DNA from: Candidatus Rokuibacteriota bacterium
Lineage (GTDB): Bacteria; Methylomirabilota; Methylomirabilia; Rokubacteriales; CSP1-6
Assembly: GCA_005887895.1 (NCBI GenBank)
Contig: VBPC01000173.1
Span: 3,006 to 67,005 of the forward strand
Length of the DNA stretch: 64,000 nucleotides
Direction: 5' to 3'
In this document: piece after piece, positions 4,159 to 32,960 of the stretch
Layout of the letters: each line of letters begins with the position of its first letter
Position numbering within the stretch: the first letter of the stretch is position 1
Program-made: the position numbers and the translations under genes
The notes under the pieces: model-generated
The model's input: the letters and a program-made list of their open reading frames with translations, nothing else
Databases searched by the model: none
Told to the model about the DNA's origin: nothing

Positions 4159-5733
4159 ATGGCCCATCTGCGTCGTTGCCTTCTCGCTCCTCCCTGCGGC
4201 GTGGCCGGGCCACGCCGCAGTCGTCGCTCGTCGGCGCCTAGCATCTGGACCATTCTCGGCGCCCTACCTCGACCCGGGCTGGCACAGCTGATTTTCTGCG
4301 CGAGTGTTGCGGCCTCGCTGGCGCTCGCCGCGGACGTCGGTAATGCGTTCGCGCAAGCTGGGGATGCGAATGCGGGGAAGGCGGTTTACGAGAAGAAGTG
4401 TGCGGGGTGTCATGGTCAGAACGGCGACGGGAAGGGGCCGGCGGCGGAGCTGCTGGTGCCGGCGCCGCGGGATTTCACGCGGGGGTTGTACAAGATCCGG
4501 ACGACGGCGAGCAAGGCGCCGTCGGACCGGGACCTGTTCAAGATCATCACGGACGGCATGCCCGGGACCTCGATGCCGTCGTGGGCGGTTCTCCCGGACA
4601 AGGACCGCTGGAATCTCGTGGCATACCTGAAGACCCTGGCGCCGGAGGCGTTCAAGGAGGCGCCCAAGAAGCTCGAGCTGCCGAAGGAGGTCGCCTCCTC
4701 GGAGGCGTCGATCAAGCGCGGCAAGGAGATGTTCGAGGCGATCGAGTGCCACAAGTGCCACGGCACCGACGGGCGCGCCGATGGGCCGTCGCGGCCTGAG
4801 CTCAAGGACGAGTGGGGCCATCCGATCGCGCCGGCCAACCTCACCAAGCGCTGGACCTTCCGGGGCGGGCCGGGACGGACCGAGATCGCCACCCGGCTGG
4901 CCGCCGGCGTCCTCGGCACGCCGATGCCGACCTTCATCGACAGCGTCGAGAAGCCGGAGGACATCTGGCACCTCGCGAACTATCTCGCCTCGCTGGGCCC
5001 CGAGCGCCCGAGCTACGCCACCCTGATCACGGTCACCGCCGTCCGCGGCGACATCCCCGACGATCCCAACGCCGAGTTCTGGAAGAAGCTGACGCCGAGC
5101 GCCATCCCGCTGATGGGCCAAATCATCCAGGATCCGCGTAACTTCAATCCGTCGGTGGATCTCGTCGCCGTCCGAGCTGCCTACAACGAGCGGGACGTCG
5201 TGTTCCACCTGACGTGGGACGACCCCAGCGAGTCGAAGGGCGACGGCAAGCAGACGTTCGCCGACGCGATCTCGCTCCAGTTCCCGCCGCAGATCACCGC
5301 GTCGATCGAGCGGCCCTATTTCCTGATGGGCGACGCCAACGAAGGCGTGTACCTGTTGCGCTGGGAGCAAGGCAAGGGCGTCGGCGAGGCGACCGCCAAC
5401 GGGCCGACGAAGATCGCACCGATCGCGGGCGGCGAGGCGGGCGGCAAGGCGGTGTACGACCACGGCCAGTACCGGCTGGTGATGCGGCGCCCGCTGGCCG
5501 CCACCGGCGAGGCGCGGCCGACGTTCCGGCCGGTCGTGTTCACGCCGGTGGCGATCCAGGCCTGGGACGGCGGCGCCGGGGAGACCGGCACCAGGATGTC
5601 GCTGACGTCATGGTACTATCTGCGGCTGGAGGAACCGCAGTCGAACCGACGCTTCGTCATTCCTCCCGTCGTGGCAATCCTCACACTGGCAGCCATGGTC
5701 CTCGTCGTGCGCGCGGCGAATCGCGTCCGATGA
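4159..5733 (+). CDS. Dihaem cytochrome c fused to an EB_dh-like (DMSO-reductase gamma / ethylbenzene dehydrogenase gamma type) haem-b domain, with a C-terminal TM anchor
   Basis: The N-terminal half carries CAGCH and CHKCH. The C-terminal half (HLTWDDPSESKGDGKQTFADAISLQFPP...YFLMGDANEGVYLLRW...) resembles the Met/Lys-ligated haem-b EB_dh fold. A C-terminal hydrophobic helix (VIPPVVAILTLAAMVLVV) follows. The start is uncertain: ATG 4129, ATG 4159 or GTG 4201 are all possible. Confidence 0.6.
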   Translation: MAHLRRCLLAPPCGVAGPRRSRRSSAPSIWTILGALPRPGLAQLIFCASVAASLALAADVGNAFAQAGDANAGKAVYEKKCAGCHGQNGDGKGPAAELLVPAPRDFTRGLYKIRTTASKAPSDRDLFKIITDGMPGTSMPSWAVLPDKDRWNLVAYLKTLAPEAFKEAPKKLELPKEVASSEASIKRGKEMFEAIECHKCHGTDGRADGPSRPELKDEWGHPIAPANLTKRWTFRGGPGRTEIATRLAAGVLGTPMPTFIDSVEKPEDIWHLANYLASLGPERPSYATLITVTAVRGDIPDDPNAEFWKKLTPSAIPLMGQIIQDPRNFNPSVDLVAVRAAYNERDVVFHLTWDDPSESKGDGKQTFADAISLQFPPQITASIERPYFLMGDANEGVYLLRWEQGKGVGEATANGPTKIAPIAGGEAGGKAVYDHGQYRLVMRRPLAATGEARPTFRPVVFTPVAIQAWDGGAGETGTRMSLTSWYYLRLEEPQSNRRFVIPPVVAILTLAAMVLVVRAANRVR

Positions 5734-5789: not shown

Positions 5790-6479
5790 ATGCGGAAGGT
5801 AGCGACGGCAGGCAGCGTGGCCGCGCTCGTCATCGGCGCGGCGATGTGGTGGGCAGCCTCGGTGGACGCGCAGGGCGGCGGCACCATCGAGGCTGACGTG
5901 AAGTACAACGGCGCGCCCAAGGTCGAGAAGCTCAAGGTCAACAAGGACACCGAGAAGTGCGGCACCGAGACGACGATCGAGCACGTGGTGGTGGGCTCCA
6001 ACAAGGGCCTCGCCAACGCGGTGGTCTCGGTTCCCGACGCCAAGGGGGCCACCAAGGCCAAGGGCGCGATCGACCAGCACGGCTGCCGGTTCGTGCCCCA
6101 CGTGGTCGTGATGCAGCCCGGCGAGATCGAGATCAAGAACTCCGACGACATCCTGCACAACATCCACACGTACTCGACGGCCAACCCGTCCATCAACAAG
6201 GCCCAGCCGAAGTTCAAGAAGGTGATGACGGAGAAGCTCGAGAAGCCGGAGTTCGTGAAAGTCACCTGCGACGTGCACAGCTGGATGCTCGGCTGGGTGG
6301 CGGTGGTGCCGGGCCTGGCCGCCGCGACCGACAACAACGGCGTCGCCAAGATCGAGAACGTGCCGGCCGGCAAGCACAAGGTCGAGGTGTGGCACGAGAC
6401 GCTGGGCAAGCAGGAGAAGGACGTCGACGTCAAGGCCGGGCAGGTGACCAAGGTCAGCTTCGAGCTGAAGGGCAAGTGA
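5790..6479 (+). CDS. Periplasmic cupredoxin-like (type-1 copper) protein with a C-terminal beta-sandwich domain
   Basis: An AGGAGG ribosome-binding site lies 7 nt upstream of the ATG, and a signal peptide follows. The putative Cu ligands are His in KNSDDILHNIH and Cys/His/Met in CDVHSWM (C-x2-H-x2-M). The C-terminus is CarboxypepD_reg-like (GVAKIENVPAGKHKVEVWHE). It is a paralogue of the gene at 13177-13926. Confidence 0.6.
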   Translation: MRKVATAGSVAALVIGAAMWWAASVDAQGGGTIEADVKYNGAPKVEKLKVNKDTEKCGTETTIEHVVVGSNKGLANAVVSVPDAKGATKAKGAIDQHGCRFVPHVVVMQPGEIEIKNSDDILHNIHTYSTANPSINKAQPKFKKVMTEKLEKPEFVKVTCDVHSWMLGWVAVVPGLAAATDNNGVAKIENVPAGKHKVEVWHETLGKQEKDVDVKAGQVTKVSFELKGK

Positions 6480-22401: not shown

Positions 22402-22491
22402 GGGACTCGACCGCCGGTTGGAGATGGGGGCTCCGGGATGGCCCCCAACCCCCGAGGACGGCTCGGAGCGCCGCGGGGCGCTCCTCGAGCG

Positions 22492-22762: not shown

Positions 22763-23833
22763 TTACGGTGCACGCGGCGCGCGAGCGGCGCAAGAGGGAT
22801 TTTCGATGCGCGCCACGATCCGCGCGCGGCGGCGCGCCGCGGTGCCCGCCAGCGCCTGATTCGACCACGCGGCGAGCGTCGTGCGCGCGAGGATGGCGCG
22901 GACCGCCGCGCGCGACACCTTCACCGGCGGCGCCGCTGCCAGCGGATTGGGGTGGGCGGCCAGCATCTCCAGCGTCGCCTGGCCGATCACCAGCGGCCAC
23001 GCGCAGGCCAGGCGCATGCGCCATTCGCGCCGCGGGACGGCCAGCGTATAGCGCCAGGCGGCGTCGTAATGGCCGAGCGCCACGTCGAGCAAGCGGTCGA
23101 GCAGGGGGCGGGCCCGCGCGGCGCCGGCCGGCTCGAGCAGGTCGGCGGGGCCCAGGCCCAGCACCGCCAGCTCGCGGGCCGGCAGGTAGCAGCGTCCATG
23201 GGCGAGGTCGGCGGGCACGTCGCGCAGCACGTTGGTGTACTGCAGCGCCTTGCCGAAGCGCACGCCCATCGCCCGCATCGTCGTCGGCTCCCAGCACGCC
23301 AGGCGCGGACGGTGAGCCATGTGGACGTCGGTCCAGAACTCGCCGACGCAGCCGGCCACCAGGTACGTGTAGCGGTCGAGCTCCTCCAGCGTGGCGAGTG
23401 CCGCCAGACCGCCGGCGTCGTCGCCGGGAAAGCGGCCGAGGTCGAATAGCATCCCATCGGTCAGCGTCGTCAACACGGAGCGCACGCGCTCGCGGTCCGC
23501 GTCCGGCAGCCGGGCGAGACGCGCGAGGACCGCGTCGAGGCGCTCGAGCAGGCGCCGCTCGGCGACCTGCGTCTGGTGTGGCCCGCAGGCGCGGGCCACG
23601 GCGGCGACGTCGCCCGGCTCGCCGGCATAGCGCCGCCGCAGCGTCTCCAGATGGCGGATGCGCTCCGGCCGGGCGATCAGTCGCGTGTCGGCGACGGTGT
23701 CGGCGGCCCGGGCCAGCAGGTAGCCGAGCCCGAGCGGCTCACGGAGCGGAGCGGGCAGGATGGCGAGCGAGAGATAGAAGCTTCGGCTGACCTGCCGGAG
23801 CAGGTCCCCGAGGAGCTCGTCACTCGTAGTCAA
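22763..23833 (-). CDS. Squalene/phytoene synthase family protein (HpnC/HpnD-like)
   Basis: The family blocks are VSRSFYLSLAILP, YLVAGCVGEFWTDV and ALQYTNVLRDVPADLAHGRCYLP, the last being the second Asp-rich and flap region. Confidence 0.7.
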   Translation of the reverse strand: MTTSDELLGDLLRQVSRSFYLSLAILPAPLREPLGLGYLLARAADTVADTRLIARPERIRHLETLRRRYAGEPGDVAAVARACGPHQTQVAERRLLERLDAVLARLARLPDADRERVRSVLTTLTDGMLFDLGRFPGDDAGGLAALATLEELDRYTYLVAGCVGEFWTDVHMAHRPRLACWEPTTMRAMGVRFGKALQYTNVLRDVPADLAHGRCYLPARELAVLGLGPADLLEPAGAARARPLLDRLLDVALGHYDAAWRYTLAVPRREWRMRLACAWPLVIGQATLEMLAAHPNPLAAAPPVKVSRAAVRAILARTTLAAWSNQALAGTAARRRARIVARIENPSCAARAPRAP

Positions 23834-24122
23834 ACGGACGCTTGGGCGGGTCCGGCGAGTCCTTGGCCTTCTTGAGGCCTTCCTGGAACTTGCGGTCGAG
23901 CACCTTGCCCTTCTGCGACTCGGCCTGCATCTGGTCGCGGAAGCGCTGCTCCCGCTCGGCCGACTTGCTGCGCAGCACGTCGAATGCGGCGCCGAGGTCG
24001 TCGACCGTGCGCTTCGGGGGCGGAGGTTCGTGCGCCACCACGGCGGCCAGATCCGGGTCGATGGTCAGCTTGGCCTGGCAGCACGGACACGCGACGACGA
24101 TCGACTTGGGCGGGGCCGACAT
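23820..24122 (-). CDS. Small CPCC zinc-ribbon protein with a charged C-terminal tail
   Basis: The N-terminus is MSAPPKSIVVACPCCQAKLTIDPD, followed by a K/E/R-rich tail. It overlaps the downstream gene by 14 nt. Confidence 0.4.
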   Translation of the reverse strand: MSAPPKSIVVACPCCQAKLTIDPDLAAVVAHEPPPPKRTVDDLGAAFDVLRSKSAEREQRFRDQMQAESQKGKVLDRKFQEGLKKAKDSPDPPKRPFDYE

Positions 24123-24179
24123 GGCGCCACGCTAGCAAGCGCATCGGAAAGGGTCAAGAGCAGGCTAGAATCGGCGTCG

Positions 24180-25094
24180 ATGGCCGACCTCAGCAACGAG
24201 TTCTCCTGGTCGCGCAGCCGTGACGCGACGTTTCAGGACTGCCGGCGCAAGTACTACCTGCACTACTACGGCGCCTGGGGCGGCTGGGCGGCCGACGCCG
24301 CCGCCGACGTCCGGCTCCTCTATATCCTCAAGCAGCTCGCCTCGCGCCAGATGTGGGCCGGCCGCGTGGTCCACGACGCGATCGAGATGGCCCTGCACGT
24401 CTACCAGCAGGGCCGCGACGTTCCCGTCGAGCCCTTCGTGGCCGACGTCATCGAACGCATGCGCGGGGAGTGGCGCAGCTCGCGGGCCGGCCGCTACCGC
24501 GACAGCCCCAAGACGCTGGCGCTCTTCGAGCACGAGTACGCGGTCGATCTGAAGCCCGAGGTCTGGCAGGCGCTCAGCCGCAACGTGAGCACGTGCCTGC
24601 GCAACTTCTTCCGCCTGCCGCTGCTGGCCGAGGTCCGCAAGACCGCGCCCGAGCACTGGTCGATCGAGCACTGGTCGAAGGTCTTCGACTTCGAGGGGAC
24701 GCCGGTGTGGAGCGCGCCGGACTTCGGCTTCTGGAACGACGCCGGCCGGCTCACGCTGGTGGACTGGAAGACCGGCGCCAGCGACGCCGACGCCACCGCG
24801 TTCCAGCTCGGCTGTTACGCGCTCTACGCGCGCGAGGTCCTCGGGGTGCCGGCCGCCCAGGTGGTGCTGCTGGAGGTCAACCTGCGCGAGCCGACCGTGA
24901 CGCCGCTGGCCTGGGACGACGCGCGGCTGGAGGCCATTCGCGAGCAGCTGCGCCTGTCCATCCGCTCGATGCGCGCCTACCTCGCCGAGCCCGCCGCGAA
25001 CGTCGCGCGCCGGGAGGACTTCGAGCGGACCGAAGAGCTGCGGATCTGCCGCTGGTGCAACTTCCGCCGCGTGTGCCGGCCGGAGCTGGTGTGA
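24180..25094 (+). CDS. PD-(D/E)xK nuclease with Cas4/AddB-type four-Cys cluster (stand-alone Cas4-like protein)
   Basis: The N-terminal Cys is in FQDCRRKYYLHYY. The nuclease core is LTLVDWKTG and VLLEVN. The C-terminal cysteines are CRWCNFRRVC. This N-Cys plus three-C-terminal-Cys spacing is typical of Cas4/RecB-family Fe-S nuclease domains. Confidence 0.6.
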   Translation: MADLSNEFSWSRSRDATFQDCRRKYYLHYYGAWGGWAADAAADVRLLYILKQLASRQMWAGRVVHDAIEMALHVYQQGRDVPVEPFVADVIERMRGEWRSSRAGRYRDSPKTLALFEHEYAVDLKPEVWQALSRNVSTCLRNFFRLPLLAEVRKTAPEHWSIEHWSKVFDFEGTPVWSAPDFGFWNDAGRLTLVDWKTGASDADATAFQLGCYALYAREVLGVPAAQVVLLEVNLREPTVTPLAWDDARLEAIREQLRLSIRSMRAYLAEPAANVARREDFERTEELRICRWCNFRRVCRPELV

Positions 25095-25116
25095 CGCGGG
25101 ACGGGCGGCTCCGGCG

Positions 25117-25416
25117 ATGAGCCTCGACTTTCTGGTGACGTCGCTGATCGTCTTCGGATCGCTCTTGCACACGAGCGCGTTCGCCTTCCTGCCCCAGTTC
25201 GTGAGCGCCGACGAGCCACATCCGCTGGCCCGCATGTTCGAGCTGAGCACCGTGTTCATGCTGCTGACGTTCGACGTCTTCGTCGGCTACTGGGCTCTTC
25301 GCCGCTCGATTCGCACGCGCGTGATCTCGCGTCCGCGGGTGTTGACGTGGATGCGCCGGGCGTTCGCCGGCGCGTTCGTCGCGCTCGGCGCCAGGCTCGC
25401 GCTCGCCGACCGCTGA
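25117..25416 (+). CDS. Small hypothetical membrane protein (2-3 TM helices)
   Basis: The sequence is hydrophobic throughout (MSLDFLVTSLIVFGSLLHTSAFAFLPQF...). Confidence 0.35.
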   Translation: MSLDFLVTSLIVFGSLLHTSAFAFLPQFVSADEPHPLARMFELSTVFMLLTFDVFVGYWALRRSIRTRVISRPRVLTWMRRAFAGAFVALGARLALADR

Positions 25417-25426
25417 CGATCCCCGC

Positions 25427-26683
25427 TCAGACCATCACGCCGACCGGCGGACCGCCCGGCGTCCAGCCGGGAAAGAGCGGCGCGGTCGCCGGCAGGCCGA
25501 GGTGTCGCGTCGTGACCTCGTGGAACAGCGCGCGAAAGTCGGTGGTGACCGCCAGGTCGCGGCCCTCGAAGCGCTGCTCGGGGGCGAGGCCGGGCCACCG
25601 CCCATGGACGCGGCCGCCGCGCACAGCCCCGCCGAGCACCAGCATCGCGGTCGCGTGACCGTGATCGGTTCCGCGGTTGCCGTTCTCGGCCACCGTCCGG
25701 CCGAACTCCGACATCGTGAGCACCACCACGTCGCTCAGTCGATCGCCCAGGTCGCGCGCGAAGGCGGCGAGGCCGCCGCCCAGCTCGCGCAGGCGATTGG
25801 CGAGCTGTCCCTGCTCGCCGCCCTGGCCGACGTGCGTGTCCCAGCCGTCGACGTCGACGAAGCCGATCCGAAGTCCGACGTCGGCGCGGATGAGCTGCGC
25901 CACCTGGCGCAGGGCCTCGCCGAAGCGGCCGCGCGGATAGTCGGCGCCGTTGGCTGGCGCCAGCTGCGCCGCGCCGGCGCTCTTCAGCAGCTTCACGGCC
26001 TCGAAGGTCGCGCGGCCGGCGCCGTGCAGCAGGTCGTGCACACCGTCGTCGTAGAGCGACTCGAAGCCCCGGCGCGCCCGCGAGGTCTCGGCGCCCGCCC
26101 GCACGTCGAAGCGCTCGAGCGAGCTCAGGGCGAGGGCGCCGGCGTCGCCGCGCAGGCTGCGCGGCAACCGCGGCCCCACCGCGACGGCCCGAAACGGCGT
26201 CGCCCGCTCGGTCGGGAGCGCGCCGGCAGCGCGGCCGAGCCAGCCGTCGGGGATGCTTTTCACGCCGGGCGTCCCGCTCTCCATGTAGTCCTGGGCGTCG
26301 AAGTGCGAGCGCGTCGTGCTGGGCGAGCCGCAGGCGTGCACGAGGGCCAGCGCCCGCGCCGTCCACAACGGCTCCAGCGCGGCCAGCGCCGGATGGAGCG
26401 CGAAGAAGCCGTCGAGATCGACGGCGCCGCGCGCCTCGCCCGCGCGCGGGCGGGCGATCGCGATGCTGGAGCGCGCGCCGTAGTATGCCGGGTCGCCGTG
26501 CGGCACCACCATGCTGAGCCCGTCGACGGCGCCGCGCTGGAAGATGGCCACCAGCACCTTGCCGCGCGCGTCGGCCGCGGCGGCGGCGCGGGCCAGGAAC
26601 CGTGGCGGGGCCGCCACGGCGGCCAGCGCGCAGGCGCCGCTCTTCAGGAGCGCGCGTCGGGTCAGCAGCGCGGTCGCTCGCAT
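25427..26683 (-). CDS. DUF1501-family protein (Tat-exported, sulfatase/alkaline-phosphatase-like fold)
   Basis: The N-terminus MRATALLTRRALLKSGACALAAV is a twin-arginine signal. The blocks VHACGSPSTTRSHFDAQDYME and GTDHGHATAMLVLGGAVRGG are DUF1501 hallmarks. Confidence 0.75.
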   Translation of the reverse strand: MRATALLTRRALLKSGACALAAVAAPPRFLARAAAAADARGKVLVAIFQRGAVDGLSMVVPHGDPAYYGARSSIAIARPRAGEARGAVDLDGFFALHPALAALEPLWTARALALVHACGSPSTTRSHFDAQDYMESGTPGVKSIPDGWLGRAAGALPTERATPFRAVAVGPRLPRSLRGDAGALALSSLERFDVRAGAETSRARRGFESLYDDGVHDLLHGAGRATFEAVKLLKSAGAAQLAPANGADYPRGRFGEALRQVAQLIRADVGLRIGFVDVDGWDTHVGQGGEQGQLANRLRELGGGLAAFARDLGDRLSDVVVLTMSEFGRTVAENGNRGTDHGHATAMLVLGGAVRGGRVHGRWPGLAPEQRFEGRDLAVTTDFRALFHEVTTRHLGLPATAPLFPGWTPGGPPVGVMV

Positions 26684-26694
26684 CGGCCGTCCTC

Positions 26695-28341
26695 CTAGCG
26701 TCGCTGGAATTCCGGGGAGCCGAGGACGAGCGCCGCCATTTTGGCGACGTCGGTGTCGGCGGGCCCGCGGTGGTCGGGTGCCAGGCGCGTGACCGGGGGC
26801 GCCGCGCGCTGCGCGCTCAACACGTCCCGCGTGGCGGAGGTGGCGCGCCCGTGGAGGAGCGAGGCCAGCAGCCGCTCGAGCGCGACGTCGGGCGACCGGC
26901 GATCGGCGTCGCTCACGAGGCCGGCCACGTCGACCCGCACGCCGGCCACCCGGCCTTCGGCGAGCGCGAGCGCGAAGTTCATCCGGGCCAGCAGCGCGCC
27001 GGGATTGACCCACGCCTCCGCGCGGTCTGGATGTCCGGTCGGCGGCTGCGCCTCGTAGAGCCCCTCGCCGATCTCCGCCGAGGCGCGCGCGAGGGCTGCC
27101 GCGCCTCGCGCGTCGAGGCTGGCGCCGAGCGCGCGGGCGGCGCTCGCCACGAACTCCGACGGCTTCTTGATCTTGGCGTCGGCGGTCGCGGGAGCGAGGA
27201 ACTCCGGGGCCGCGAAGACCACCCGCAGCATCGCCCGGATGTCGCCGCCGGAGGCGCGATAGGCCGCCGCCACGCGCTCGACGAGCGCCGGCGGGGGATC
27301 GTCGGCCACGAAGCGGCGCACCAGCTTGCCGGCCACGAAGCGGGCGGTCGCCGGGTGCCGGGCCAGCAGCTCGAGCACCTCGTCGCCGTCGCGCTGGCCG
27401 CCTGCGCGCACCGGCCGATCCAGCACGAGCTTGTCACCGCCGTCGTGCATCGCCGGGCGAAAGGCGAAGCGCGCCTCCTGACGCGGCCGGTCGATGGTCC
27501 ACCCGCTGAAGGCGCGCGCCACCTCGGTGACGTCGGCCTGCGTGTAGCCGCCGTCGACGCCCAGCGTGTGAAGCTCCATCAGCTCGCGGGCGTAGTTCTC
27601 GTTGAGCCCGGCCCGCCGACCGGCGTTGGGGCCGGCGCGCACGGTGAAGCCCGGACGCGTGCTCAGCCAGTTGTCGAGGTAGAAGAGCATGGCCGGGTGC
27701 TGGGCGGTCGCCCGTAGCAGGTCGGGGAAGCGGCCGAGCGCGTGGGGACGGATGACGTCGCGCTCGTAGGCCGTCAGATACCAGCGCAGCTCGCCCTTGC
27801 CCGCGAAGACGTTGAAGTGGTTGAACCAGAAGTCGACCATCACCTCCTGCAGCTGCCGCTCGCTCGTCACCGCCCGCAGCATCTTCGCGGCCTGCAGCTC
27901 GCCCACGATCCGGAACGGTCGCTTGTCCGTCCGGAGCTCGCGCATCTCGTTGCGGGTCATCTCGCCGCTGGCGAGCTTGCGCCGGGTTTCTGCGTCAGGG
28001 CGCGGGTACTCGCGCTGCAGGTCGCCGATCGACATCGTCAGCGTGGGGAGCGTGGCGAGGGCGCGCTCGGTCACCGCATCGTCGATTCGTTCGGGGTCCA
28101 GCTGACGCTCGAGCCAGGCGGCGAGGCCGATGGCCTTCACCTGCTCGACGTCGCCCGGCCGCGGCCCGTACGTCACCCGCTGCAGGACGTGCAGCACGCG
28201 TTCATCGATCGACGACGACGGCGTGGAGGCGGCCTGCACCGTTGCCACCCGGGTCGTGGCAACCGGCTCGTCTCGCAGTGCGCAGCTGCACGAGGCGACC
28301 GCGGCGAGCCCGACGACGACGGCCAGCCGGGCGCGCCTCAT
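26695..28341 (-). CDS. DUF1800-family protein (usual partner of DUF1501)
   Basis: The blocks VMVDFWFNHFNVF, MLFYLDNWLS and NENYARELMELHTLG match DUF1800. Confidence 0.75.
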   Translation of the reverse strand: MRRARLAVVVGLAAVASCSCALRDEPVATTRVATVQAASTPSSSIDERVLHVLQRVTYGPRPGDVEQVKAIGLAAWLERQLDPERIDDAVTERALATLPTLTMSIGDLQREYPRPDAETRRKLASGEMTRNEMRELRTDKRPFRIVGELQAAKMLRAVTSERQLQEVMVDFWFNHFNVFAGKGELRWYLTAYERDVIRPHALGRFPDLLRATAQHPAMLFYLDNWLSTRPGFTVRAGPNAGRRAGLNENYARELMELHTLGVDGGYTQADVTEVARAFSGWTIDRPRQEARFAFRPAMHDGGDKLVLDRPVRAGGQRDGDEVLELLARHPATARFVAGKLVRRFVADDPPPALVERVAAAYRASGGDIRAMLRVVFAAPEFLAPATADAKIKKPSEFVASAARALGASLDARGAAALARASAEIGEGLYEAQPPTGHPDRAEAWVNPGALLARMNFALALAEGRVAGVRVDVAGLVSDADRRSPDVALERLLASLLHGRATSATRDVLSAQRAAPPVTRLAPDHRGPADTDVAKMAALVLGSPEFQRR

Positions 28342-28997
28342 CGCGGCGCCTCCTCGCCGCGACGCTCGCGGCGCAGCTGCTGGCGCTGCTCGGGCGTCAG
28401 CTGGCGCGGGCGCTGGCGCTCCGCCGGCGTCATGTGCTGGCGGAACCGCTGGCGCTCCTCGGGGGTCATCTGCTGGCGCACCTGCTCACGGGCGTGTGCG
28501 CGCTCCTCCGGCGTCATGCGCTGCCAGCGCTGATAGTTCTCCATCACCCGCTGGCGCTCTTGCGGCGGGAGGCTCTGGAACTGGCGATAGCGCTCGAGGA
28601 TCCGCTCACGCCGCTCGGGCGGCAGCCGCTGGAAGCGGTCGTAGGCGCGCTGCAGCTCCTGGCGTCGGGCCTCCGGCAGCTCGTTCCAGCGCTGGAAGTC
28701 CTCGAGAATCCGCTGGCGCTCGGTCGGCGGCAGCCCGCGGAAGCGCTGGAAGTTGTGCCGCGCGGTCTGCCGCTCCTGCGGGGAGAGCGCGCGCCACTGG
28801 CGATAGTTCTCGAGGATGCGCTGGCGCTCCTCGGGCGGCAGCCGGCGCCAGCGCTCGAGATTGCGCTCGACGACGGCCCGCTCGTCGGGCGACAGGTTGT
28901 CGAGCCCCGGCGGCGTCTGGCCCCATGCCACCTCGAGGAGGCCGCCGGCCAGCAGCGCCGCCGCCGTGAGCGCGATGGGAAGCCAGCGGCGCATCAT
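28338..28997 (-). CDS. Secreted repeat protein of the DUF3106-like type (about 22-aa repeats with conserved W/R and the PP-ERQR core)
   Basis: After a signal peptide come more than seven repeats of LPPEERQRILENYRQWRALSPQERQ and related units such as RFRGLPPTERQRILEDFQRW. Confidence 0.55.
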   Translation of the reverse strand: MMRRWLPIALTAAALLAGGLLEVAWGQTPPGLDNLSPDERAVVERNLERWRRLPPEERQRILENYRQWRALSPQERQTARHNFQRFRGLPPTERQRILEDFQRWNELPEARRQELQRAYDRFQRLPPERRERILERYRQFQSLPPQERQRVMENYQRWQRMTPEERAHAREQVRQQMTPEERQRFRQHMTPAERQRPRQLTPEQRQQLRRERRGEEAPR

Positions 28998-29287
28998 CGC
29001 GCGGGCCCCTGGCCGGTGACTGCCGGTGCCGGCGGTGGTGGCGGTGGCGGCATCGACTCCGCCGCTGGTCGGGCTTCGAGCATTCGCATCATCTCGAGCA
29101 GTCGCCAGCGCTCGACGACGCTCATGCGTCGCATGAGATCGCGCTCCTGTGGCTTCGTCTCGGCCAGCAGATCGAGATCGAGCAGGAGCTGCGCGTCCGG
29201 CGGGGCCTCCGGCTCGGCCGCGGCGGCCGCGCGCGCTCCGGCGAGGGCGACGAGAACGACGGCTGCCAGCGCCAGGCCACGACGCAC
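28994..29287 (-). CDS. Small secreted Pro-rich protein
   Basis: A signal peptide (MRRGLALAAVVLVALAGARAAAA) is followed by ...RWRLLEMMRMLEARPAAESMPPPPPPPAP. Confidence 0.4.
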   Translation of the reverse strand: MRRGLALAAVVLVALAGARAAAAAEPEAPPDAQLLLDLDLLAETKPQERDLMRRMSVVERWRLLEMMRMLEARPAAESMPPPPPPPAPAVTGQGPAR

Positions 29288-29288
29288 G

Positions 29289-29747
29289 TCAGCGCGCTCC
29301 GCCGAGCCGATCGAGCTGGCGGATCGCGTCCAGGTCCTCGAGCATGTCGAGCCGCTCGACGATCTGATATTGCTGCAGCAGCGGCAGCCGAGCGCCGAGG
29401 ACCGTCTCCTCCATCGTCACGACGTCGCTGGGCGTCCGCGGCAAGCCGTGCACGGCGAACACGATCAGGGCCGTCGCGAAGCCCGCCGCCAGCACGGTCG
29501 GCACCGGCCGCCGCCACCACGCCCGGCGCGACGCGGCCACTCGCGCCCGCAGCTCGGCCTGGTAGCGCCCCCAGTCGAGCGGCGGCGGCGCGGGCGCGCC
29601 GGCCACCAGCGCCTCCAGCACGACGCGGCTCTCGTCGGCCGCGCGCCGGCACGCCGAACAGCCGTCGACATGGGCGGCCACCCGCGCGCGCTCGGCCGGC
29701 GGCAGGTCGCCGCGGACGAACGCGATCAGCTCGCTCTCAGGATGCAT
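29289..29747 (-). CDS. Zinc-dependent anti-sigma factor (ZAS-type)
   Basis: It carries the HxxxCxxC motif HVDGCSAC, a single TM helix (TVLAAGFATALIVFAV) and a periplasmic tail. It overlaps the upstream sigma-factor gene by 11 nt. Confidence 0.7.
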   Translation of the reverse strand: MHPESELIAFVRGDLPPAERARVAAHVDGCSACRRAADESRVVLEALVAGAPAPPPLDWGRYQAELRARVAASRRAWWRRPVPTVLAAGFATALIVFAVHGLPRTPSDVVTMEETVLGARLPLLQQYQIVERLDMLEDLDAIRQLDRLGGAR

Positions 29748-30378
29748 CGCTCTGGCCTCGCCCCATCGTCTTGCGCAGCGCGCTCACCGCGCGATGCAGG
29801 TGCACGCGCACCGTCGCCTCCGAGCATGCCAGCACCTGCGCGATCTCGCTCGTCGCCAGGTCTTCCTGCACGTGCAGCAGCAGCGCCGCCCGCTGCTGCG
29901 GCGAGAGCCGCTCCACCTCGCGCCAGACCTGCGCCATCAGCCGCTCACGCCCGAGCAGGTCGGCCGGATCGGCCGTGGCCCCTGGCTGCCGCTCGAGGAG
30001 GCCGCCGCGCTCGGGATCCTCGCCCTCGTCCCTGACCGTGAACCGCTGCCACCAGCGGCCGCGTCGCCGGTGATCCAGGCAGAGGTTGACCAGGATCCGA
30101 TAGAACCAGGTGGAGAACTTCGCCTCGCCGCGGAAGCTCGCGGCCGTCCGATACACGCGGAGAAACGCTTCCTGCGAGAGGTCGCGGGCGTCCTCGGCGT
30201 CGCGCAGCAGCGACCAGGCCAGCCGGTACGCGCGCCCCTGGTGCCGGGCGACCAGCACGTCGAAGGCCGCCTCGTCTCGGGCCGCGACCCGCGCCAGCAG
30301 CGTTTCATCCGATGTCTCCTGGGTCAACGCGACCTCTGTCGTCAACCATCCCATTCCTCGCTCGCCGGCAGCAAGCAT
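29737..30378 (-). CDS. ECF (sigma-70 family group 4) RNA polymerase sigma factor
   Basis: Region 2 is DLSQEAFLRVYRT...FSTWFYRILVNLCLDHRR. Region 4 is LSPQQRAALLLHVQEDLATSEIAQVLACSEATVRVHLHRA. Confidence 0.85.
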   Translation of the reverse strand: MLAAGERGMGWLTTEVALTQETSDETLLARVAARDEAAFDVLVARHQGRAYRLAWSLLRDAEDARDLSQEAFLRVYRTAASFRGEAKFSTWFYRILVNLCLDHRRRGRWWQRFTVRDEGEDPERGGLLERQPGATADPADLLGRERLMAQVWREVERLSPQQRAALLLHVQEDLATSEIAQVLACSEATVRVHLHRAVSALRKTMGRGQSDAS

Positions 30379-30425
30379 CCCGACCCAGGACCGGCCGGGC
30401 CGGCCTGGGTCGGGCGAGCTGCCGC

Positions 30426-30824
30426 TTACGAGCCGTCGCGCCGGTCCTCGCGCACGTCGCGCCGGTCGTGCCGGAGATCGCGCCGATCCTGGCGCACGTC
30501 GCGCACGTCACCGCGCCGGTCGGCGCGGTCCGCGCGGAGATCCTGGCGATCGCGGCGGATCTCCTGCCGCTCCGCCTGGGCGCCGGCGGTGTCGCCCTGG
30601 CGAACATCCCCCCGCAGCTCGCGGCGGTCCTGGCGCAGATCGCGCCGGTCCTGACGGATGTCACGCGTGTCCCGGCGGACGTCGCGCCGGTCCTGACGGA
30701 CGTCCCGCCGATCGTGGCGGATGTCCTGGCGGTCGCGGTGCACGTCCTCCGCGAGCGCCGGGGTCGCGGCCAGCGCCGCGAGCAGGCTCGTCGTGATCAC
30801 CATCCCTGTCAGCTTCATGTCCAT
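30426..30824 (-). CDS. Secreted highly charged heptad-repeat protein ((D/E)RRD(V/L/I)RQ repeats)
   Basis: A GAGGAG ribosome-binding site precedes the ATG. A signal peptide (MDMKLTGMVITTSLLAALAATPALA) is followed by more than 12 near-perfect 7-aa repeats, RQDRRDVRQDRRDVRRDTRDIRQDRRDLRQDRRELR.... The underlying DNA has 21-nt periodicity. Confidence 0.55.
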   Translation of the reverse strand: MDMKLTGMVITTSLLAALAATPALAEDVHRDRQDIRHDRRDVRQDRRDVRRDTRDIRQDRRDLRQDRRELRGDVRQGDTAGAQAERQEIRRDRQDLRADRADRRGDVRDVRQDRRDLRHDRRDVREDRRDGS

Positions 30825-30939
30825 TCTCCTCAACGAGAGCGATATGGACTGCTTGCTCGATAGGACGCGCGCCCCGACAGCCCCGTTTACCCCAAATGCC
30901 GCACCGCGCCGTGACACACACCGATACCGACATAGAGAC

Positions 30940-31092
30940 GCGCCACGGCTTCGCCGGGGGCGCGCCGAACGTGGGGGATTTGGGGGCCATGTCGGGGCCC
31001 CGCACGACGTCAACCATTCCAGAGAAGCGCCACGGCTCCGCCGGGGCGCTGCGAAGGTTTGGGGGCTTGGGGGCCATGTCGGGGCCCCCATC
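30940..31092. repeat. Two tandem REP-like direct repeats (about 68 nt, roughly 88% identical, 87-nt period) in the intergenic region
   Basis: Copy A is agacgcgccacggcttcgccgggggcgcgccgaacgtgggggatttgggggccatgtcggggcccc. Copy B is agaagcgccacggctccgccggggcgctgcgaaggtttgggggcttgggggccatgtcggggcccc. Each contains the hairpin ggggcc-atgtcg-ggcccc. Confidence 0.75.
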
Positions 31093-31095
31093 TAA

Positions 31096-32268
31096 TCAAT
31101 CGAGAACCACCAGCCCGCGATGCGAGCGATTGAGGCCGTGAGCGCCGGTGCGCGTGACGAGCACCGTATCCTTCACGTTGAGACCGACCTCGCCGGCCAC
31201 GTAGTATGGCGTCTCCACGCGCAGCACCATCCCCATCTCGAGCGCGCCGCCGTCGGGCGCCAGGCGCGGCGGCTCGGCGGGCTCGAGCCCGATGCCGTAG
31301 CCGACGTGGTGACGGGCGAAGCGGGGGAGCCCGGCCTTGCGGGTGGCCGTGATGGCGGCCTCGAACACGGCGGCGCCGGTGACGCCGGGTCGCACGGTGT
31401 CCAGCGCGGCCTCGAGCCCCGCGTGGATCGCGTCGAACGTCGCCTGCTGCGACGCGGACGGCTCGCCCATCACGGCCATGCGGGCCACGTCCGAGTGATA
31501 GCCCTTCACGACGCAGCCGAGGTCGAAGCGCACGAGCTCGCCGGCGCGCAGCGGGCGGTCGGTGGGCCACGGCGCCGGCACCGCCGAGCCGGCGCCGAAC
31601 GCGACGATCGTGCAGTACGGCGTCGCGCCCTGGGCGATGACCTCGCGCTCGAACGCCTCGGCGGCCTCGCGCTCGGTGACCCCCGGGCTCAGCAGCGCGA
31701 GCACCACGTTGATCGCCTCCTCGGCGACGTGGAGCGCGCGCTGCAGGCAGTCGATCTCGTACGGTCCCTTGACGAGCCGCGCCGCGGCCAGCGTCGCCGA
31801 CCCGGGCACGACGCTCACGCCTTTCAGTCGCTCGCGCACGGCCGCCGCCGTCGCGGCCGGCAGCCCGGCGTCGTCGAGACCGACACGGCCGCCGGCGACG
31901 CCCAGCAAGCCCAGGGCGGCGGCCAGCGCGTCGGCGCCGCTCGCAATCGGCTCGGCGACGAGCCGGCTCAGCCGCCGCGCCGCCTCGCTCCGCGCGCCGG
32001 CCGCGTCGAGATGGAATCGTCCGTGGCAGAGGACGTGGCCGACCTCGACGTTGCCCTCGACGACGGCGGCGGCGTCGAGCGTCGGCACGACCAGCGCGGT
32101 GCTGGCGCGGGTCACGACCGCGTAATACTCCTGCGCCGGATAGACGCTCCGCGCGAGGCTGCGAAAGCCGGTGAGGTAGGCGACGTTGGCCGGCGACGCC
32201 GCCACCAGCGCGTCGAGCCCCTCGCGCTCCAGGGCTTCGGCGAGCCGCTCGGCTTGGTGCGGGTACAT
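31096..32268 (-). CDS. M24-family metallopeptidase (Xaa-Pro aminopeptidase / creatinase-like)
   Basis: The N-terminal creatinase-like domain is followed by the pita-bread catalytic domain, with blocks VRFDLGCVVKGYHSDVARM and HHVGYGIGLEPAEPP. Its start overlaps the SDR stop (TGATG). Confidence 0.75.
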   Translation of the reverse strand: MYPHQAERLAEALEREGLDALVAASPANVAYLTGFRSLARSVYPAQEYYAVVTRASTALVVPTLDAAAVVEGNVEVGHVLCHGRFHLDAAGARSEAARRLSRLVAEPIASGADALAAALGLLGVAGGRVGLDDAGLPAATAAAVRERLKGVSVVPGSATLAAARLVKGPYEIDCLQRALHVAEEAINVVLALLSPGVTEREAAEAFEREVIAQGATPYCTIVAFGAGSAVPAPWPTDRPLRAGELVRFDLGCVVKGYHSDVARMAVMGEPSASQQATFDAIHAGLEAALDTVRPGVTGAAVFEAAITATRKAGLPRFARHHVGYGIGLEPAEPPRLAPDGGALEMGMVLRVETPYYVAGEVGLNVKDTVLVTRTGAHGLNRSHRGLVVLD

Positions 32269-32960
32269 CAGATCATCAGCAGCGTGCCGGTCACGTAGCC
32301 CGCGCTCTCGGCGGCGAGCGAGGCGACGGCGTCGGCGACGGCGGTGACGGGCACCCACGTCTTGGGGTCGGCGTTCGACATGGCGGCGCGATTGGCGGGC
32401 GTGTCCATCGTGCTGGGCAGCACGGCATTGACCGTGATGCCGTGCGGCTTCACCTCCTGGGAGAGCGCCTGGGCCAGGGCGATCACGCCGGCCTTGGCGA
32501 CCGTGTAGGCGATGAAGCCGCCCGCCGGCGGAACCACCGCGCGCGAGGCGATCATCACGACGCGGCCGGCGCCGGCGGCGATCATGTGCGGCAGCGTCGC
32601 GCGCGCGGCCGTGAACGCCGTCGTCAGGTTGAGCGCGAGCATGGTATCCCAGGTGGCGCGATCGGTCTCGACGAGACGGCCGCCGGCGAAGCCGCCCACC
32701 CCGGTGACCAGGACGTCGAGGCGCCGGTGGCGCTCGACCAGCGCCGCGGTCAGTCGCGCCATGGCGGCCTCATCGCTCACGTCGCAGCGCTCCAGGGTCA
32801 GGCGCGCGCGCGCGGCGGCGTCCACCGAGGCCTGCAGCCGCTCGCGCTCGCTCTCCACGATCCACGGCACACAGACGGCGGCGCCGTCGGCGAGGAAGCG
32901 GTGGACGACCGCCTGGCCGAGCGCGCCGCTGCCGCCAGTGACGAGGGCCACGCGGGCCAC
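32268..32960 (-). CDS. SDR-family short-chain dehydrogenase/reductase
   Basis: The NAD(P)-binding motif is ALVTGGSGALGQAV. The catalytic YxxxK is YTVAKAGV, with a conserved NAVLP block. Confidence 0.8.
   Translation of the reverse strand: MARVALVTGGSGALGQAVVHRFLADGAAVCVPWIVESERERLQASVDAAARARLTLERCDVSDEAAMARLTAALVERHRRLDVLVTGVGGFAGGRLVETDRATWDTMLALNLTTAFTAARATLPHMIAAGAGRVVMIASRAVVPPAGGFIAYTVAKAGVIALAQALSQEVKPHGITVNAVLPSTMDTPANRAAMSNADPKTWVPVTAVADAVASLAAESAGYVTGTLLMI

Follow-up and report, generated by a model that had tools for sequence, protein, structure and literature searches.

A Rokubacterial operon that probably joins an ECF sigma/anti-sigma module to exported DUF1800 and DUF1501 proteins

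Proteins with DUF1800 and DUF1501 domains belong to large and widespread families (at least 8000 matches each), and our searches of the literature and the PDB returned neither a reported function nor a solved structure for either. The locus described here raises the question of whether such a pair can be the output of a dedicated sigma factor. It lies in a stretch of 64,000 nucleotides from a Candidatus Rokuibacteriota bacterium (assembly GCA_005887895.1, contig VBPC01000173.1, positions 3,006 to 67,005), hereafter the window. The initial annotation, made from the letters alone, read positions 25427-30378 as an envelope module under the dedicated control of an extracytoplasmic function (ECF) sigma factor and described DUF1800/DUF1501 pairs as widespread but functionally uncharacterised. 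The latter statement agrees with the size of the families and with a literature search covering DUF1800, DUF1501, DUF3106, DUF3619 and the Pfam accessions, which found no functional study. As to the former, we conclude with a probability of about 0.6 that the region from about 30890 to 25427 is a seven-gene ECF sigma operon, in which a widespread regulatory module (ECF sigma factor, single-pass zf-HC2 anti-sigma factor, small secreted protein and DUF3106 protein) is joined by translational coupling to exported DUF1800 and DUF1501 proteins.

A list of open reading frames (ORFs) combined with a Pfam scan showed that six consecutive minus-strand ORFs occupy positions 25427-30378 with no spare room, in DNA of about 73% G+C. 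They encode, from upstream to downstream, an ECF (group 4) sigma factor (ORF 29737-30378, feature 29737-30354; Sigma70_r2 3e-18, Sigma70_r4_2 8e-15), a single-pass zf-HC2 anti-sigma factor (29289-29747; PF13490, 4.5e-9), a small secreted protein of 97 amino acids recognised by its ORF and signal peptide (28994-29287), a DUF3106 protein (28338-28997; PF11304, 1.4e-33), a DUF1800 protein of 548 amino acids (26695-28341; PF08811, 3e-141) and a DUF1501 protein of 418 amino acids with a twin-arginine translocation (Tat) signal (25427-26683; PF07394, 3e-38). A further co-directional ORF, 30426-30824 on the minus strand, encodes an RD-repeat protein and is gene 1 of the proposed operon. The initial annotation was thus right about co-direction and wrong about the count, having placed seven genes in an interval that holds six. 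It had also announced overlaps or gaps of 12 nucleotides or less. Read directly from the sequence, sigma overlaps the anti-sigma gene by 11 nt, 1 nt separates the latter from the gene for the 97-residue protein, the next two junctions are ATGA overlaps, and DUF1501 follows after 11 nt that contain a GGAGGA ribosome-binding site, so that no junction exceeds 11 nt. Independent callers gave the same genes on contigs identical to the window that come from four other metagenome samples (L094-L097), and the junction pattern of the called genes is common to these and to the related loci L001-L003.

Within the operon body a consensus scan found neither a terminator-like site nor a sigma-70-like consensus site, the minus strand carries no further AAC-N15-18-CGTC motif, and an Rfam scan of positions 24500-32500 gave no match. 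In particular, no terminator or promoter motif was seen between the anti-sigma gene and the DUF genes, and the junction between DUF3106 and DUF1800 is one of the ATGA overlaps. All five non-regulatory products carry export signals, consistent with the proposed envelope module. On the sequence, both the predicted co-transcription of these genes and the predicted envelope targeting of their products are well supported.

The sigma factor contains only the sigma-2 and sigma-4 domains (Sigma70_r2 at residues 42-109, Sigma70_r4_2 at 150-201) in a protein of 196-205 amino acids. It matches the NCBIfam model TIGR02937 (sigma70-ECF) with 4.9e-30 and 104 bits against a cutoff of 42.9, and reaches the cutoff of none of the NCBIfam equivalog models, the best scoring 138 bits against 204. 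Comparison with relatives favoured a start at the ATG at 30354 or at a conserved TTG at 30327, preceded by an AGAGG ribosome-binding site, over one at 30378. As is expected of an ECF factor, a cognate anti-sigma gene lies directly downstream and overlaps the sigma gene. The anti-sigma factor carries an N-terminal H26-x3-C30-x2-C33 motif that is conserved in the alignable orthologues, a single membrane helix at residues 80-103 by hydropathy, and an acidic periplasmic tail of about 50 amino acids (isoelectric point (pI) 4.6) with the conserved motif LLQxYQVVERLDxLEDLD. It had been called zinc-sensing; the H-x3-C-x2-C motif indicates a probable zinc site and does not show sensing. The main text of the paper that reclassified ECF sigma factors contains no mention of DUF3106, DUF1800 or DUF1501.

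Promoters recognised by ECF sigma factors typically show an AAC/CGT pattern, for example those of sigmaW, sigmaX and sigmaM of Bacillus subtilis. The window contains a single match to such a motif in its ECF-type form GTAAAC-N17-CGTC, at positions 30864-30890 on the minus strand, about 40 nt upstream of gene 1. This element, P1, has AAC in the -35 and CGT in the -10 region, as expected for the autoregulatory promoter of an ECF sigma factor. The initial annotation had proposed to predict a promoter upstream of 30378; a conserved ECF-type promoter does exist, but it stands before the extra first gene (30426-30824) and not directly before sigma. P1 was kept in 7/7 Rokubacteria-type loci that include the upstream DNA (in intergenic DNA of L001, L002, L003, L008, L010 and L011) while the surrounding sequence had diverged, which gives the extended consensus GTAAACGa-N16-18-CGTCcAAt. 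We strongly infer that P1 depends on the sigma factor encoded in the operon.

The Rokubacteria-type loci comprise L001, L002, L003, L008, L009, L010 and L011 in addition to the four contigs identical to the window. Among the matches listed, the nearest relatives of DUF1800 and DUF1501 stem from metagenomes and metagenome-assembled genomes (MAGs) labelled Methylomirabilota, NC10 or Rokuibacteriota. The search for this synteny that had been asked for found the order RD-repeat gene, sigma, zf-HC2 anti-sigma, (small protein), DUF3106, DUF1800, DUF1501 in every Rokubacteria-type locus, with DUF1800 identities between 63 and 100%. Where genes had been called (L001-L003, L094-L097) DUF3106 and DUF1800 overlap by 4 nt; the corresponding ORF matches found with phmmer abut or overlap in L010 and L011 and are about 30 nt apart in L009.

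The two halves of the operon also occur apart. ECF sigma, anti-sigma, (small gene) and DUF3106 form stand-alone modules without DUF1800 or DUF1501 after them in L004, L006, L089/L090 (Terriglobales), L091 (Acidoferrales) and L092 and L093 (Gammaproteobacteria). Across Acidobacteriota, Gammaproteobacteria and other phyla these modules show the same order and families as the Rokubacterial operon and differ from it in ending after DUF3106 and in lacking the RD-repeat gene. DUF3106 directly follows a sigma/anti-sigma pair in 7/8 independent contexts from at least four phyla, with no other conserved cargo. In L004 a P1-type motif precedes sigma by 114 nt, no gene lying between them, which speaks for a motif proper to this sigma lineage and for ancestral autoregulation. 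Neither P1 nor the Pyrinomonadaceae motif described below was found upstream of sigma in the modules L006, L089, L091, L092 and L093. Two of these, the Acidobacteriota-type L006 (about 5655-5690) and L091 (about 1220-1255), carry the loose pattern (G/C)xAACTT-N14-GGTT(C/G)AATC at that place; to judge from these two examples it may play the part of the autoregulatory promoter there, its -10 element ending in AATC as it does in Rokubacteria.

The DUF1800 protein matches its Pfam profile over the full length (471.8 bits, profile positions 1-419 of 419). Its N-terminus carries an L-x-G-C lipobox whose Cys18 is at least 90% conserved in 30 orthologues, so that a lipoprotein is predicted in the Rokubacteria lineage; among relatives from other phyla a lipobox was present in 13/84. 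The AlphaFold model (predicted local distance difference test score (pLDDT) 70, predicted template modelling score (pTM) 0.76) is helical for the most part and includes a small sheet, and no significant PDB neighbour was found by fold (best Foldseek expectation value (E) 0.67) or by sequence profile search. The motifs conserved across phyla are FWxNHFN, PAM..LDN, GxNENYxRELMELHT, H299 and KxKxPxE.

The DUF1501 protein scores 132.3 bits against a Pfam cutoff of 27 and begins with the twin-arginine signal TRRALLK, in which R9 and R10 are invariant; an RR motif was found in 63/68 relatives. At least 97% conserved in these 68 sequences are D54, R125-S126-H127-F128, W281-D282-x-H284 and T339-D340-H341-G342-H343. 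This set looks like the metal ligands and nucleophile of the two-metal enzymes of the alkaline phosphatase superfamily, with Ser126 of the R-S-H-F motif as the predicted nucleophile. The structural model is mediocre (pLDDT 64, pTM 0.74). Its top Foldseek matches in the PDB all belong to this superfamily (PbgA/YejM, sulfatases, LtaS, EptC and alkaline phosphatases), at the weak level of E about 2e-3, probability up to 0.97 and template modelling (TM) scores of 0.3-0.38, and a PDB search found no sequence-level relation to any solved structure. Taking conserved residues and model together, DUF1501 is probably a two-metal hydrolase of the alkaline phosphatase superfamily fold. DUF1501 does not qualify as a type I (formylglycine) sulfatase, since the Cys/Ser-x-Pro-x-Arg motif is missing from the DUF1501 of the window and occurs in 11/68 relatives at scattered, unconserved positions. 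The description of DUF1501 as sulfatase-like with a Tat signal consequently holds for the signal, and for the likeness at the superfamily level only.

The three remaining products are small, secreted and highly charged. The RD-repeat protein (132 amino acids, or 130 from a second ATG at 30818) has a signal peptide followed by a mature part consisting of little but RQDRRD(V/I/L) heptads (35% Arg, 24% Asp, pI 11.2) and matches no Pfam or NCBIfam family. Its orthologues stand directly upstream of sigma in every Rokubacteria-type locus that includes the region (for instance L003:~6098-6280, L009:3-570, L011:4493-5015) and vary about 4-fold in length, from about 49 amino acids in L003 to more than 190 in L009, by gain and loss of RQDRR(D/E)x heptads; in L009 the gene is duplicated. 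The phmmer matches, mostly of 100-250 amino acids, number 950 cluster representatives at E<=1e-3 and 133 at E<=1e-10, counts that may be inflated by the biased composition. Behind its signal peptide the 97-residue protein has an acidic helix rich in Leu (DAQLLLDLDLL...ERWRLLE) and a tail rich in Pro (mature pI 4.8), and Pfam and NCBIfam scans found no family for it. It is conserved in L001, L002, L009, L010 and L011 and missing in L003, and L004 and L093 have a small gene in the equivalent slot. Its Leu/Asp-rich acidic motif is shared with the tail of the anti-sigma factor. The DUF3106 protein (115.9 bits against a cutoff of 24.3, with ATGA overlaps at both ends of its gene) begins with a signal peptide, after which come about 11 helical repeats rich in Arg and Glu, of the type L-P-P-E-E-R-Q-R...W; its mature form has a pI of 11.4, a net charge of +14 and 45 Arg. 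It is the only repeat protein within 25427-30378, where two secreted repeat proteins had been announced, the 97-residue protein not being repetitive.

A relationship of DUF3106 to CpxP, Spy and ZraP was considered and found no support. The window protein gave no LTXXQ or Metal_resist match even at E<=10, a profile search of the PDB returned no Spy, CpxP or ZraP chain, and the sole Metal_resist signal was a sub-threshold match in sequence P0175 (21.4 bits against 29.2). The LTPEQRQQ-like motifs of DUF3106 recall the LTxxQ of CpxP/Spy as a resemblance only, a likeness without profile support. Apparent Rosetta-stone fusions (zf-HC2+DUF3106, DUF3106+DUF1800 and DUF3106+Sigma70_r2 in P0147, P0175, P0136 and P0140) were rejected as evidence, because the sequences look like neighbouring genes merged by deletion, frameshift or run-on. 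In a Deltaproteobacteria MAG (L005:5325-7852) DUF3106 has no adjacent sigma gene and is preceded by genes for an M50/PDZ protein (RseP-like site-2 protease) and an FHA protein; what might pass for a zf-HC2 domain at its N-terminus has no CxxC pair and resembles a run-on from upstream.

The relation of the pair to ECF regulation outside Rokubacteria was examined by a DUF1800-alignment scan with one genome per GTDB species. It gave 80 loci, three of the Rokubacteria type with the full operon and 77 others from Acidobacteriota, Gemmatimonadota, Dormibacterota, Binatia and Elusimicrobia, most of which have the DUF1800-DUF1501 pair and none of which has DUF3106. According to single-query phmmer searches none of the 77 had a co-directional sigma gene upstream of DUF1800, a result that we discarded as a sensitivity artefact, divergent regulators being recovered by clustering of flanking ORFs, an iterated hidden Markov model and a Pfam scan. 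Ten Acidobacteriota loci, mostly Pyrinomonadaceae (L021, L024, L026, L028, L037, L039, L044, L048, L057 and L085; for example L057:2571-8710), encode an ECF sigma factor and a zf-HC2 anti-sigma factor, co-directional and 1.5-5 kb upstream of DUF1800. Their sigma factor is N-terminally extended, matches Sigma70_r2, Sigma70_r4_2 and Sigma70_ECF and is undetected by phmmer with the sigma of the window; their anti-sigma factor has about 400 amino acids. One variable gene (for a zinc-ribbon membrane protein or an AMP-binding enzyme) and an M28/fn3 peptidase gene stand between these regulators and DUF1800.

ECF-type promoter motifs were found before DUF1800 in the same data set. The motif AAC-N16-17-CGTC, chosen a priori, occurs 20 times in the 27.6 kb made up of the 360-nt stretches preceding DUF1800 and 356 times in the remaining 1934 kb of the loci, a 4-fold enrichment. 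The extended motif TTCAACC-N15-GCGTCTAA reached a score of at least 13 of 14 in 13/77 loci and in 0/1431 background windows, an enrichment that is somewhat optimistic because the motif was defined from the same data, a problem from which the a priori motif is free. It lies 60-190 nt before DUF1800 in all ten sigma-bearing loci. All four Gemmatimonadota loci (L019:61-86, L046:~1622, L051:~6933 and L076:~6870) carry GT(A/T)AAC- or ATTAAC-N16-CGTC(C/T)A 60-130 nt before DUF1800, which closely resembles P1, and no sigma gene within 7 kb of it. Taken as a whole, the initial annotation is supported on both points that it had singled out: no boundary was seen between the anti-sigma gene and the DUF genes, and the pair is linked to sigma genes in relatives, namely in all Rokubacteria-type loci and, independently and with a different ECF sigma and zf-HC2 anti-sigma factor, in the ten Acidobacteriota loci.

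A different reading starts from the spacer between gene 1 and sigma. It contains a GC-rich hairpin with 17-bp arms (inverted repeat I2, 30380-30413, minus strand; fold energy -41.1 kcal/mol, z = -4.5), which is possibly an attenuator, a partial terminator or an RNA-stability element. Just downstream lies a tentative, putative housekeeping-type promoter, P2 (30345-30374, minus strand), with the sequence TTGCTG-N18-GATGGT preceded by TG. In this block, CTTG(C/A)..N17-18..TGnGATGGT / CAAGGT / TAAGGT, the position upstream of the sigma start is kept in 7/8 Rokubacteria-type loci, and it could be a weak promoter. P1 might then serve mainly the RD-repeat gene, with the hairpin terminating transcription and sigma to DUF1501 being expressed constitutively from P2, so that the pair would not be truly sigma-inducible. 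The strength of the hairpin and the fixed place of the TTGxxx-N17-18-(TGn)GATGGT/CAAGGT box speak for this, as do hairpins in most lineages, those of the RD/sigma spacers in L009 and L011 being of unrelated sequence (z = -3.2, and -1.95, the latter less clearly above background) and those in L002 and L008 being followed by a U-run. Yet the hairpin of the window has no U-tract, L003 and L010 have no hairpin in this spacer, and the P2 box falls below the threshold of the consensus promoter scan. The ECF motif directly before sigma in L004 and the ECF-type promoters that DUF1800 has for itself in other phyla argue further for sigma control, and we regard separate, constitutive expression of the pair as unlikely. 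A stronger competitor concerns the small proteins. DUF3106, the 97-residue protein and the RD-repeat protein could be outputs, as charged periplasmic protectants of a chaperone-like or polyanion-binding kind, with the anti-sigma factor sensing by itself. All three are secreted and highly charged (pI 11.4, 4.8 and 11.2), the length changes of the RD-repeat protein by repeat expansion are typical of non-enzymatic 'bulk' proteins, its gene comes first behind P1 and is probably the most highly expressed, and the 97-residue protein is dispensable in L003. The recurrent place of DUF3106 after sigma/anti-sigma pairs, on the other hand, is usual for accessory regulators such as RseB, and the acidic Leu-rich motif of the anti-sigma tail and the 97-residue protein could bind a basic partner. 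We consider the output role plausible, if somewhat less probable than its opposite.

The remaining explanations deserve less weight. The conserved H-x3-C-x2-C motif, together with an NCBIfam match to RsrA that is weak and falls far short of the cutoff (E 4e-4), would fit an RsrA-type thiol/redox sensor and an operon that answers cytoplasmic oxidative stress through the Cys pair. RsrA, however, is soluble, whereas this anti-sigma factor has a membrane helix and a conserved periplasmic tail, every co-transcribed product is exported, and most zinc-finger (zinc-associated anti-sigma, ZAS) factors use their zinc structurally, so that a redox sensor of this type seems rather improbable. That the two halves lie together by chance or recent juxtaposition, without functional meaning, might be suspected from their independence in many genomes, but an arrangement with start/stop overlap that persists down to 63% identity in several independent samples, and the recurrence of ECF-type promoters or sigma genes beside the pair in two other phyla, leave very little room for it.

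Several points nevertheless weigh against a dedicated ECF operon with an enzymatic output. A strong hairpin followed by a conserved housekeeping-like box allows basal, sigma-independent transcription from sigma through DUF1501; both elements could weaken the 'dedicated' nature of the control and suggest that it would be graded, not all-or-none. The pairing of P1 with the sigma factor is read from motif type and position, and the roles given to the DUF3106, 97-residue and RD-repeat proteins are guesses from charge and position. The DUF1501 model is poor around the predicted active-site loops and its Foldseek matches reach E values of only about 1e-3. In Pyrinomonadaceae the motif found before DUF1800 was not found upstream of the neighbouring sigma gene in the ten loci, so that this sigma factor is no more than a candidate regulator, and about 60 of the 77 non-Rokubacteria loci have no detectable sigma gene or motif.

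With these reservations, the seven-gene ECF operon would work as follows. At rest the cytoplasmic zinc-finger domain of the anti-sigma factor would keep sigma at the membrane. An envelope signal, perceived through the short acidic periplasmic tail, would lead to inactivation or proteolysis of the anti-sigma factor, and the basic DUF3106 and RD-repeat proteins and the acidic 97-residue protein may take part in its perception; as candidate periplasmic signalling accessories the three are put forward hypothetically. Free sigma would then direct RNA polymerase to the conserved P1 sequence before the RD-repeat gene and raise expression of the whole operon, sigma included. The output would be a lipoprotein, DUF1800, and a Tat-exported two-metal hydrolase with a Ser nucleophile, DUF1501, whose joint substrate may be an extracellular or envelope phospho- or sulfo-ester. 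Of these steps, a charge-based relay and phospho- or sulfo-ester hydrolysis are the most hypothetical.

A broader proposal can be built on the same data, and we offer it as doubtful. DUF1800/DUF1501 might be a general ECF output across phyla, recruited independently at least twice, once by fusion into the sigma operon (Rokubacteria) and once in cis with a promoter of its own (Pyrinomonadaceae). The pair would be a periplasmic metallo-hydrolase of two proteins, serving under stress to remodel or scavenge a phospho- or sulfo-ester of the envelope or of the extracellular space. In Rokubacteria the signal would be perceived by a charge-based periplasmic relay of a kind not previously described, in which two basic proteins, DUF3106 and the RD-repeat protein, would bind acidic Leu-rich motifs in the anti-sigma tail and in the 97-residue protein, the latter acting as a decoy.

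The regulatory half of the operon most resembles sigmaW-RsiW of B. subtilis, in which a two-domain sigma factor is likewise co-transcribed with a single-pass anti-sigma factor carrying an N-terminal H-x3-C-x2-C and the promoter is of the AAC(-35)/CGT(-10) type (TGAAAC-N16-CGTA for sigmaW). Autoregulation and release by regulated proteolysis are likely common features. In contrast, the Rokubacterial anti-sigma factor has a periplasmic part of only about 50 amino acids with an acidic motif of its own, no NCBIfam equivalog is reached, and the operon adds three secreted charged proteins and an enzyme pair. With rpoE-rseABC of Escherichia coli it shares a periplasmic accessory gene after the anti-sigma gene, DUF3106 and the 97-residue protein occupying the slot of RseB; here, however, the anti-sigma factor is not of the RseA type, a relation between DUF3106 and RseB is undetectable, and the effector genes are in cis. 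The exported half invites a functional analogy with Tat-exported hydrolases of the PhoD type, metal-dependent enzymes of the alkaline phosphatase superfamily that reach the envelope by twin-arginine export, as is predicted for DUF1501 with its conserved Asp/His metal-type ligands and its Ser at the nucleophile position; DUF1501 differs in its obligatory partner gene, DUF1800, and in having no sequence relation to solved structures. Chitin-synthase islands of bacteria contain DUF1800-DUF1501 pairs (PMC5122149), and in Planctomycetes and Verrucomicrobia DUF1501 occurs with PSCyt/PSD1 partners (PMC3542564). There too a DUF1501 protein with a Tat signal stands beside a large exported partner, whereas the Rokubacterial pair is fused to a presumed regulator and has no chitin synthase or cytochrome-type partner. 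The Pyrinomonadaceae arrangement shares an ECF sigma factor and a zinc-finger anti-sigma factor near the pair and an AAC/CGTC promoter before DUF1800, and differs in its very divergent sigma, its much longer anti-sigma factor, the lack of DUF3106, the wide spacing and the separate promoter of DUF1800.

The operon is flanked upstream by genes for an M24 peptidase/creatinase-like protein (31096-32358, minus strand) and a short-chain dehydrogenase (32268-32960, minus strand), and downstream by genes for a PD-(D/E)XK nuclease (24030-25094, plus strand) and a squalene/phytoene synthase-like protein (22763-23833, minus strand). L001, L002 and L094-L097 show all four in synteny. The more distant L003 and L010 lack the M24 gene, which is therefore probably outside the operon unit. 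Between it and P1 lie two tandem copies (30934-31001 and 31021-31088, 79% identical) of an intergenic element of about 68-87 nt that resembles repetitive extragenic palindromic (REP) sequences and has the core GGGGCCCCGACATGGCCCCCAA. A third, weaker match to the core occurs 8.5 kb away at 22427-22448, chance alone predicts no matches, and related copies stand at the same place in L001. On the other side, a convergent ORF (25117-25416, plus strand) for a hydrophobic protein of 99 amino acids without a Pfam family is called on all four identical metagenome contigs; it ends 10 nt from the stop codon of DUF1501, too close for a terminator to fit behind the operon. L002 has a response-regulator/PilZ gene there instead.

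That ECF sigma factors and zinc-finger anti-sigma factors are encoded with neighbouring cargo, and that DUF1800 pairs with DUF1501, is well known. To judge from the searchable literature, the fusion of a DUF3106 module with the DUF pair in Rokubacteria, its conserved promoter and the recurrence of ECF-type control in two further phyla are new. Since ECF operons with neighbouring cargo are themselves familiar, the gain is incremental and not conceptual. What it does is to place the pair behind ECF-type promoters in three phyla and, in Rokubacteria, in physical fusion with a sigma/anti-sigma pair, and so to make a problem of two domains of unknown function more tractable, if not solved. The P1 motif lets the regulon of an uncultivated soil lineage be predicted, and over-expression of the sigma factor or deletion of the anti-sigma gene would offer an experimental handle for switching the pair on and seeking the change that it may bring about in the envelope or in a substrate.

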